Shown: positions 5,217 through 5,626 of the stretch, in pieces | Position numbering within the stretch: position 1 is the first letter of the stretch | Layout: each line of letters begins with the position of its first letter | Virus record (IMG/VR): IMGVR_UViG_2711768009_000009 | DNA: 43,679 nucleotides | Reading direction: 5' to 3' (one strand) | Source: a virus | Taxonomy: Duplodnaviria; Heunggongvirae; Uroviricota; Caudoviricetes | Notes under the pieces: model-generated | The model's database searches: none | What the model saw: only the letters and a program-made list of their open reading frames with translations | What the model was told of the DNA's origin: nothing | Translations under genes and position numbers: made by a program

Positions 5217-5370
5217 GACAGGATTTCCTTGTGTATGTGGGGTGCTCTGTGGCGCTCTGAGATGTGATTTGATTGAGGGTTTTACAGCGCGGACATTTAA
5301 CTTCCAGATAACTGAAGCTGGCTCGTGCCAGTAGCTTGTTACAATGTCGGCACCGTATGTTTCGATACAT
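5170..5370 (-). CDS. com: Com-like zinc-finger translational activator of mom (66 aa from internal ATG with AGGAGG RBS)
   Basis: ORF track 5170..5415; [17 protein letters not shown]...[12 protein letters not shown] carries two CxxC pairs like Mu Com; overlaps the mom 5' region in another frame. Confidence 0.75.
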
Positions 5371-5417
5371 GGCCGCATAACCTCCTGCTTTGTTGTTGAT
5401 ATCTTTATCACTCAATC

Positions 5418-5503
5418 GATCGACAAAAACGATCGATTTGATTTATTTAATTGATACAACAAATAACACGAAATGTCATTAGCGAAAATTTATGAGTTTG
5501 ATC
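5418..5503. promoter_or_regulatory. Cluster of three GATC (Dam) sites upstream of com/mom, putative Dam-dependent mom promoter control region
   Basis: GATC at 5418-5421 and 5431-5434 (inside overlapping CGATCG/ATCGAT palindromes) and at 5500-5503; Mu mom promoter is known to be controlled through upstream GATC methylation. Confidence 0.4.
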
Positions 5504-5626
5504 ACTAATTTTAAACGGTGCTGTAACGCATAAGTGCTGAATGATTGTACATTTGAATACCGCAAAGCAAACAAATCAACTAATTTATAGAAGTCAATTG
5601 GTTAATTGCCAGCGTAAGAGGCTGCT

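Follow-up and report, generated by a model that had tools for sequence, protein, structure and literature searches.

The com-mom operon of phage Mu is the closest described system for the locus considered here. The Pmom block of Mu is an experimentally defined Dam/OxyR region, and the promoter itself is intrinsically very weak (PMC3378877). At the level of translation, Mu Mom starts at a GUG within the stem of a translation-inhibition structure (TIS), and the motif recognised by Com, CC(N)2-3GAG in a 6-nt loop, lies directly 5' of the TIS (PMC6483171). The residues of Mu Mom whose mutation impairs function are H48, Y49, R101, S114, D139 and Y149 (PMC7261163, PMC13219725), R101 and S114 being R111 and S124 in the 241-aa numbering of 2026, and an HTH-like insertion in the protein is essential, as established by deletion (PMC13219725).

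Other phages provide further points of comparison. SP18-type Mu-like phages encode Mom and its regulator at the corresponding position, and the Mu-like prophages FluMu/Pnm1 (Hin1523, Nme1821, Hia5) carry, at their right end, a DNA-modification gene preceded by a Com homologue (PMC3299994). In the gtr system of P22, each OxyR dimer half-site that contains GATC has two of them 13 bp apart; the pair nearest the promoter, which it overlaps, is at -46/-33, and repression results when OxyR binds there (PMC2909390). For the Sp18-type lineage, no experimental study of regulation was found in the literature.

The window, that is, the whole stretch of DNA that was analysed (43,679 nt; IMG/VR virus record IMGVR_UViG_2711768009_000009), holds a Mu-like prophage in reversed orientation. 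Two overlapping genes near one end of it are, with good probability, a functional com-mom operon that most likely works as it does in Mu; the prophage is an E. coli one of the Sp18-like kind. The sections below set out where the locus follows Mu, which is in its proteins and its messenger RNA, and where it departs from Mu, which is in the arrangement of the region upstream of com.

The com and mom genes and their place in the prophage

The features of the prophage and of the two genes are as follows.

About 38.7-41.8 kb, minus strand: transposase A and B genes, then GemA, one Mor/C-family activator, lysozyme, and head and tail genes
5381..5386, minus strand: com Shine-Dalgarno sequence AGGAGG, 10 nt 5' of the ATG, in a 30-nt leader
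5370..5170, minus strand: com, 66-aa zinc-ribbon putative translational activator (ATG at 5370, stop 5172-5170)
4479..5216, minus strand: mom, 245 aa, predicted GNAT enzyme that modifies adenine with Gly-tRNA(Gly) as donor (start codon GUG, 5216-5214)
4347..4478, minus strand: prophage right-end segment 3' of mom, about 130 nt (end at 4347-4351)

A first, sequence-only reading of this DNA had placed a Com-like gene, overlapping a Mom-like gene, at the prophage right end; Pfam matches, alignments to Mu and mapping of the end agree with this placement. When the prophage is compared with an independent E. coli insertion, identity ends at 4350/4351, and TGATACCGAT terminal repeats at the right end match the left end near 42910-42938. 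A 5-bp target-site duplication was sought at both prophage ends and no clean one was found. Because the right end lies at 4347-4351, com-mom occupies the same place as the com-mom of Mu, which is likewise about 120 nt from the right end and has the same gene order and overlap. The two phages differ elsewhere, in that Mu has two Mor/C-family genes and a gin/G segment, whereas the phage in the window has one Mor/C gene and no gin/G segment. The activator gene in question (33039-33461) was the sole Mor-family gene found in the region examined, and it is C-like, with 40% identity to Mu C and 28% to Mor.

Com matches the Pfam family PF10122, Zn_ribbon_Com (E 7.8e-13; 48.1 bits, against a cutoff of 22.9), and is labelled 'translational regulator' and 'gpCom control of modification' by PHROG. 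Its identity with Mu Com is 44%, and all four cysteines are retained, the two CxxC pairs (C7, C10, C26, C29) aligning with C6, C9, C26 and C29 of the Mu protein. By this likeness Com would bind mom mRNA and activate the translation of Mom. RefSeq gives com identical coordinates in an identical copy, and the 30-nt leader is invariant across E. coli alleles. The two genes lie on the same strand and overlap by 47 nt, between the start of mom at 5216 and the end of com at 5170.

The assignment of Mom rests on several comparisons. The protein matches PF25680 with an E-value of 1.6e-77 over profile positions 1-202 of 202, and its residues 5-233 match the solved structure of Mu Mom (PDB 8bv8) with an E-value of 2.4e-123. 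Aligned with Mu Mom it shows 78% identity and is gap-free across the region of the HTH-like insertion; a 12-aa C-terminal extension distinguishes it from the Mu protein. The sequence-only reading had held that loss of the acyltransferase-fold residues would refute its account of the module, and all six mutationally defined residues are present, as H50, Y51, R103, S116, D141 and Y151, each invariant in the alignment with Mu Mom. The gene shows a dN/dS of 0.05-0.07 relative to E. coli relatives at a dS of 0.18-0.26; strong purifying selection thus keeps mom in being, and it is no relic. The enzyme would be expected to convert adenine in double-stranded DNA to N6-carbamoylmethyl-adenine.

The same reading had suspected that mom does not begin at an ATG, and the start proves to be the GUG at 5216, homologous to the GUG of Mu. 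The mom frame is open over 310 codons in the window, from 5411, and a longer Mom, either the whole 310-aa open frame or a product started at an ATG at 5378, was considered. It was rejected, because in relatives whose Mom is 97-98% identical the mom frame is closed by a stop at +73 from the com ATG, and the GUG alone is conserved. All lineages have just one start candidate in common, a GTG that lies +136 to +163 from the com ATG; that of the window is in frame at +154, and the RefSeq protein WP_000528246.1 begins at this same GTG (5216). The 231-aa Mu Mom starts at the eleventh codon of the annotated Mu ORF. Since the start is homologous to that of Mu and universal in the lineages, the use of a codon other than ATG is not unusual here but is a conserved and known feature.

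Predicted RNA hairpins at the com-mom junction

Folding of the mRNA around the junction, where the sequence-only reading had proposed that a stem-loop be sought, yields two adjoining hairpins.

5242..5255, minus strand: predicted Com operator hairpin, GCGC-CACAGA-GCAC on the mRNA, carrying CC-ACA-GAG
5211..5242, minus strand: predicted TIS, CCCCAC (5242-5237) paired with GUGGGG (5216-5211)

The first of these fits the Com motif both in its loop, CC-ACA-GAG conforming to CC(N)2-3GAG, and in its position immediately 5' of the TIS. The second, which the MFE prediction and the centroid fold have in common, has the mom GUG in its 3' arm. Its loop is 20 nt long, with the Shine-Dalgarno GGA paired within the loop. 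The layout is that of Mu, in which a CCCAC/GUGGG-type hairpin with the GUG adjoins an operator with CC-N3-GAG; the differences are that the TIS loop of Mu is 11 nt, as against 20 nt with the Shine-Dalgarno additionally paired in the window, and that the operator stem of the window lineage contains a C.A mismatch.

Comparative evidence for the hairpins came from about 100 Mom-encoding loci, 58 of them with a Com ORF, from which 11 distinct junctions were aligned. All four pairs of the operator helix show compensatory changes among the 11 lineages, the variants including AUGC/GCAU, GCAC/GUGC, GCGU/ACGC and GUGC/GCAC. Cells of the operator helix are paired in 93% of cases, and those of the junction alignment in 97%; when the partners are slid as a control, the figure drops to 25-62%. 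In the 11 lineages the TIS stem does not vary except for one C-to-U change that gives a U-G wobble, an invariance that is in itself uninformative because the region codes in two frames; the length of the TIS loop varies, and GGAG or AGGA always lies within it.

Two observations were counted against the main reading. One is the single C.A mismatch in the operator stem of the window lineage, at which a relative differing by one base (L026, C5254U) has U-A. The other is that the folds do not stand out by their thermodynamic z-scores. A search of Rfam over 4300-6800 returned no family, the sole hit being a sub-threshold match to Esr41.

The GATC sites and the region upstream of com

The features of the upstream region, of which the last two are putative, are the following.

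5418-5421 and 5431-5434, no strand: GATC pair, 13 bp apart; putative Dam target and OxyR dimer half-site
5500-5503, no strand: third GATC, probably outside the control region; shared by the window lineage and L039 alone
5401..5410, minus strand: weak candidate -10, TGaTAAAGAT (compare TAAGAT of Mu)
5450..5464, minus strand: possible second OxyR half-site, ATTTGTTGTATCAAT; 7/10 consensus positions, 31 bp upstream of the pair, without a GATC

Three GATCs at 50-130 bp upstream of com, two of them in overlapping palindromes, had been reported at the outset, and they are indeed there. The sites are at 5418, 5431 and 5500, which is -51, -64 and -133 when counted from the ATG of com (5370, minus strand), and no other GATC occurs between 3972 and 6648. 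The proximal two fall in overlapping palindromes (ATCGAT 5415-5420 with CGATCG 5417-5422, and CGATCG 5430-5435 with ATCGAT 5432-5437), and the stretch 5414-5438 forms a perfect 9-bp inverted repeat, AATCGATCG-N7-CGATCGATT. A count of three is by itself weak evidence and is not beyond chance: when the 256-bp intergenic region is shuffled with its composition preserved, the probability of three or more GATCs is about 0.05. Over the window as a whole GATC is depleted (124 seen, 170 expected), and if these 124 sites are placed at random, three-site clusters are as numerous as observed in 79% of trials. The pair at 5418/5431 is the sole one in the window spaced exactly 13 bp apart (local P about 0.003), and it is more than chance because it is conserved in related loci.

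This conservation is extensive. About 12 enterobacterial com-mom lineages, with Mom identities of 75-100%, retain the 13-bp pair, despite variation in the nine bases between the two sites (gtttttgtc, atttttatc, aatattacc, ataaacacc, ggtaataca, gactaaagc, gacgtggcc and gttaaaaca). Among 10 E. coli alleles the pair is invariant in a block that is about 96% identical. GATC is entirely absent from four com-mom loci that are non-enteric. At the position of the 5500 site, relatives with 97% identical Mom have unrelated sequence, and that GATC is probably incidental and specific to the lineage. The conserved unit, putatively Dam-sensitive, is the 13-bp pair and not the full three-site cluster of Mu.

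Comparison with Mu was made with the Mu +1 set at position 697 of L001, from the published Ptin7 fragment (-58 to +20). On this numbering the three GATCs of Mu fall at -87, -69 and -56, and its com begins with the ATG at +23. The window block AAATCGATCG..GATCGATT aligns with Mu Pmom. GATC sites II and III of Mu are also 13 bp apart, in the form AATCGATCG-N7-aGATCGATT (GATCGATT right arm), and the window pair is homologous to them; site I of Mu is without a GATC counterpart in the window and has been lost. The proposed likeness to the Dam sites of Mu holds, in consequence, for 5418 and 5431, the equivalents of II and III, and fails for 5500, which has no counterpart in Mu.

The geometry of the homologous block is not that of Mu. 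It lies 27 bp nearer the com ATG, and the alignment to Mu has a 36-bp gap across the Mu spacer and -10. Mu spacing would place the +1 at 5365, inside com, and the pair therefore cannot sit at -56/-69. The C-site of Mu spans -28 to -57. The C box of Mu and its T6 spacer are without a counterpart in the window, no clear -35 is present there, and the Mu C-box motif CATAAYCCC is absent upstream of com. Whereas Mu Pmom has a 19-bp spacer with a T6 run and a -10 of TAAGAT, the window retains only a TAAAGAT resemblance, the weak candidate -10 at 5410-5401, which is 31 nt from the com ATG (29 nt in Mu). A scan of 4300-6800 for sigma-70 promoters found none on the com strand upstream of com. Given the 27-bp shift and the lack of a C box, the geometry of any Dam/OxyR control must differ from that of Mu; the promoter is not a copy of the Mu promoter, and its dependence on Dam is plausible.

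The same short layout occurs in four other lineages (L047, L048, L049 and L004), and short-type lineages carry TATACT, TATAGT or TGaTAGATT at this place, 7-9 bp past the proximal GATC. In E. coli alleles the 13-nt patch at the putative -10 is hypervariable. The window differs from the commonest allele of Sp18-type E. coli prophages at 5 of the 13 positions and in the extra GATC at 5500. Certain close alleles lack a plausible -10 in the patch, which was counted against the main reading.

The late promoters of the phage share a different arrangement, TCCGCAAAnCCnGCCCC-N14-TAyGCT, found at 33019-33035 before lys and at 24832-24848 before the protease/scaffold gene; the late-promoter motif TCCGCAAANCCNGCCCC is absent upstream of com. 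Two further candidates were set aside. CCGCAAA at 5561-5567, considered as an activator box, is on the opposite strand and at the wrong spacing to any -10, and was judged a chance occurrence. GGTTATGCGG (5382-5373), considered as a late -10 (GGyTAyGCTG), would place the start inside com, and the box upstream of it matches at 5/17 positions.

Matches to the OxyR half-site consensus at 7-8 of 10 positions occur at 5433-5419, 5446-5432 and 5464-5450, the first of these, the region of the GATC pair, matching at 7/10. Their 0/+18/+31 geometry is the same in the window as in Mu, and the possible second half-site (5450..5464) is conserved in E. coli alleles, a match that is not significant when taken alone. 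The window has two bipartite matches, that at 5419/5450 among them, where shuffles lead one to expect 2.9, and this is the level of chance. We infer an OxyR site at the GATC pair, and with it a geometry of about -40/-27 that would resemble the -46/-33 of P22 gtr, which is, like E. coli agn43, a Dam/OxyR epigenetic switch with GATCs spaced 13 bp apart. The gtr system has two GATC pairs and three half-sites and undergoes heritable ON/OFF phase variation, whereas the window has one pair, and a bistable switch is therefore not expected.

Alternative readings and distribution of the module

Three other accounts of the locus were weighed. The one that survives best, though it is improbable, makes AATCGATCG-N7-CGATCGATT the operator of a phage regulator, for example the C/Mor-family activator encoded at 33039-33461, acting in class II fashion over the -35; the GATCs would then be incidental and there would be no dependence on Dam or OxyR. 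The perfection of the 9-bp inverted repeat and its activator-like position, if the -10 is at 5410-5401, accord with such an operator, as do the lack of any other visible activator box and the existence of sister short-type promoters with a good -10 and no -35; yet what is conserved is only the GATC cores and their 13-bp spacing, while the arms vary (tattGATCaatattaccGATCgatt, tttcGATCataaacaccGATCgatt, tatcGATCgttaaaacaGATCaatt). Nor are the OxyR motif matches significant, a point in its favor to be set against the different motif (TCCGCAAAnCCnGCCCC) used by the late promoters of the phage and against the homologous block of Mu, where the Dam/OxyR region was defined by experiment (PMC3378877).

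Less probable again is the idea that the module is a transcriptionally silent remnant, its core promoter deleted (by about 27-36 bp relative to Mu) and its genes persisting through recent spread of the prophage. Long purifying selection on mom, at the dN/dS and dS given above, argues against this, as does the invariance of the leader and GATC block among alleles whose synonymous sites differ by about 20%. The net shortening of 27 bp and the failure to detect a promoter would fit a remnant, but four other lineages with the short architecture have consensus-like -10 boxes, and Mu Pmom is also intrinsically very weak (PMC3378877). Similarly, the hypervariable patch where a -10 is expected and the C.A mismatch in the operator stem suggest decay, whereas both com and mom ORFs are intact in 25/25 close IMG/VR copies.

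Very unlikely indeed is a GATC cluster that has arisen by chance, the intergenic region being AT-rich, and that plays no regulatory role, a reading consistent with the P of about 0.05 for three sites in 256 bp, with a window-wide number of clusters as expected and with the non-conservation of the third site, and apparently the best one for the 5500 site alone, but for the pair contradicted by comparative data: its retention in about a dozen lineages despite diverged spacer and flanks, its absence from non-enteric com-mom loci and its homology to Mu II/III.

Under the preferred reading, a com-mom operon that works as in Mu, a weak promoter just 5' of com would produce a single com-mom mRNA, presumably late. 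Com, as a zinc-ribbon RNA-binding protein, would be made first and would bind the small hairpin at 5255-5242 through the loop motif CC-ACA-GAG. This binding would open the CCCCAC/GUGGGG hairpin that masks the mom Shine-Dalgarno and the GUG at 5216, and the Mom so produced would move glycine from Gly-tRNA(Gly) onto N6 of adenines in the phage DNA, protecting it from restriction. Access to the promoter is probably gated by Dam: the unmethylated pair at 5418/5431 would be bound by OxyR and the promoter blocked, and methylation would keep OxyR off. With the -10 at the candidate site, the GATCs would be at about -27/-40, and OxyR would occlude the -35 and spacer, as it does at the OxyR(BC) site of gtr. 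Since the Mu geometry is impossible here, the GATC block must overlap the -35/spacer and not the interval from -56 to -87.

For the short lineage as a whole (the window, L047, L048, L049 and L004), a broader proposal may be entertained, tentatively and with considerable doubt. The Dam/OxyR site may have moved onto the -35/spacer of a compact promoter without a C box, such that the Dam/OxyR state of the host, rather than a late activator, would be the main gate for the toxic mom. The layout would then be closer to that of P22 gtr/agn43 than to Mu Pmom, and the 13-nt hypervariable patch would show that leaky expression in the lysogen has been tuned or repeatedly knocked down.

The module occurs in 233 of 5426 complete E. 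coli genomes. Identical copies are present in many RefSeq genomes, under the names 'Com family...' and 'tRNA(Gly)-dependent adenine aminoacyltransferase Mom', and O157:H7 chromosomes carry it at 95.6% identity. FluMu/Pnm1 has replaced Mom by a Dam-related non-specific methyltransferase, whereas the window retains a true Mom. The locus is, in short, an ordinary Mu-type com-mom operon, retained and selected, and already annotated in databases. As textbook com-mom annotated in hundreds of E. coli genomes, it has small value as a discovery, and only the compact upstream region without a C box, with one GATC pair over what is likely the core promoter, appears mildly novel.

Its comparative value is modest and resides in the covariation of the Com operator and in a GUG-in-hairpin start that is universal in the lineages examined. 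There are, moreover, two promoter layouts among com-mom modules, a long one, as in Mu, and a short one, as in the window, and the short form bears on whether Dam/OxyR gating can work without the C-box architecture of Mu.

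The com leader and the reading frame upstream of mom

The 13-nt patch just past the GATC pair, at the place expected for a -10 (patch at window 5401-5413), is hypervariable: in closely related E. coli alleles it reads gagtgataaagat, gcatgagaaaggc, aggcgagaaagat, tggtgagaaagat or tgatgaagcaaac. The stretches that flank it, the GATC block and the 30-nt leader, hardly vary. The leader itself takes another form in sister lineages of the short type (L047, L048 and L049, whose GATC block lies nearer com than in Mu): there it opens, about 30 nt upstream of com, with a small hairpin that has a CCUCC-like (anti-Shine-Dalgarno) loop and a stem carrying compensatory changes (GCCAC..GUGGC versus GCCG..CGGC). 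This hairpin is missing in the window lineage.

In the window lineage the mom frame runs without a stop for 65 codons before the GUG (5411-5217), spanning the whole of com, and holds an in-frame ATG (5378-5376) 2 nt past the com Shine-Dalgarno. An extended Mom could be made independently of Com via this frame. Because the frame is interrupted by a stop at +73 in close relatives, its openness is probably an accident. In identical RefSeq copies (e.g. L002 3331-3531), the name that PGAP gives to Com is 'Com family DNA-binding transcriptional regulator'; experimental work has instead described Com as an RNA-binding translational activator (PMC6483171).

Departures from Mu elsewhere in the prophage

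Unlike Mu, with its distinct Mor and C steps, the window phage has a single Mor/C-family activator gene in the region examined (33039-33461), directly flanked by gemA and a lysozyme gene; its product is 40% identical to Mu C and 28% to Mor. Two late promoters (33019-33035 and 24832-24848) share TCCGCAAAnCCnGCCCC-N14-TAyGCT. The middle (Mor) and late (C) steps that are separate in Mu may be merged here. Where Mu carries gin and the G segment, the window prophage has other genes, and no invertase is present at 5627-8759.

Genes at the place of gin and the G segment
5627-5920, opposite strand, orphan 97-aa ORF (no match in Pfam or PHROG)
6088-6342, DUF826
6378-6572, DUF1378
6705-8759, 684-aa protein, DUF6645 and SASA-esterase

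Fragments of an IS66-family transposase (3802-4260) and of the N-terminal part of a lambdoid tail fibre (2753-3748) border the prophage. A comparison of its two ends (flanking DNA at 2753-4346 and 42939-43000) gave TAGGC versus TCTAG/TAGCC, which is not a clean 5-bp target duplication.

Mom homologues without Com

A Com zinc-ribbon ORF is missing upstream in about 44 of the 100 fetched Mom homologues (L003-L101), most of which share about 70% identity with the window Mom and lie mid-contig in viral contigs of 40-50 kb. In six of these 44, mom is accompanied on its own strand by a tRNA-Gly(UCC) gene, which in five cases lies upstream, within about 120-280 nt, and in the sixth downstream; among 39 Com-bearing loci, no tRNA-Gly gene occurs.

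tRNA-Gly(UCC) genes, all on the mom strand, by fetched locus
L013 3457-3531
L084 633-706
L086 2310-2384
L092 2306-2379
L095 2218-2291
L099 2306-2379

This linkage, of which a term search of PMC13219725 (2026) found no mention, fits Gly-tRNA(Gly) as the Mom co-substrate. Nearly all Com-less loci also lack any GATC cluster, so that control by Com and the translation-inhibition structure and control by Dam sites co-occur, restricted to the Mu-like right-end context.
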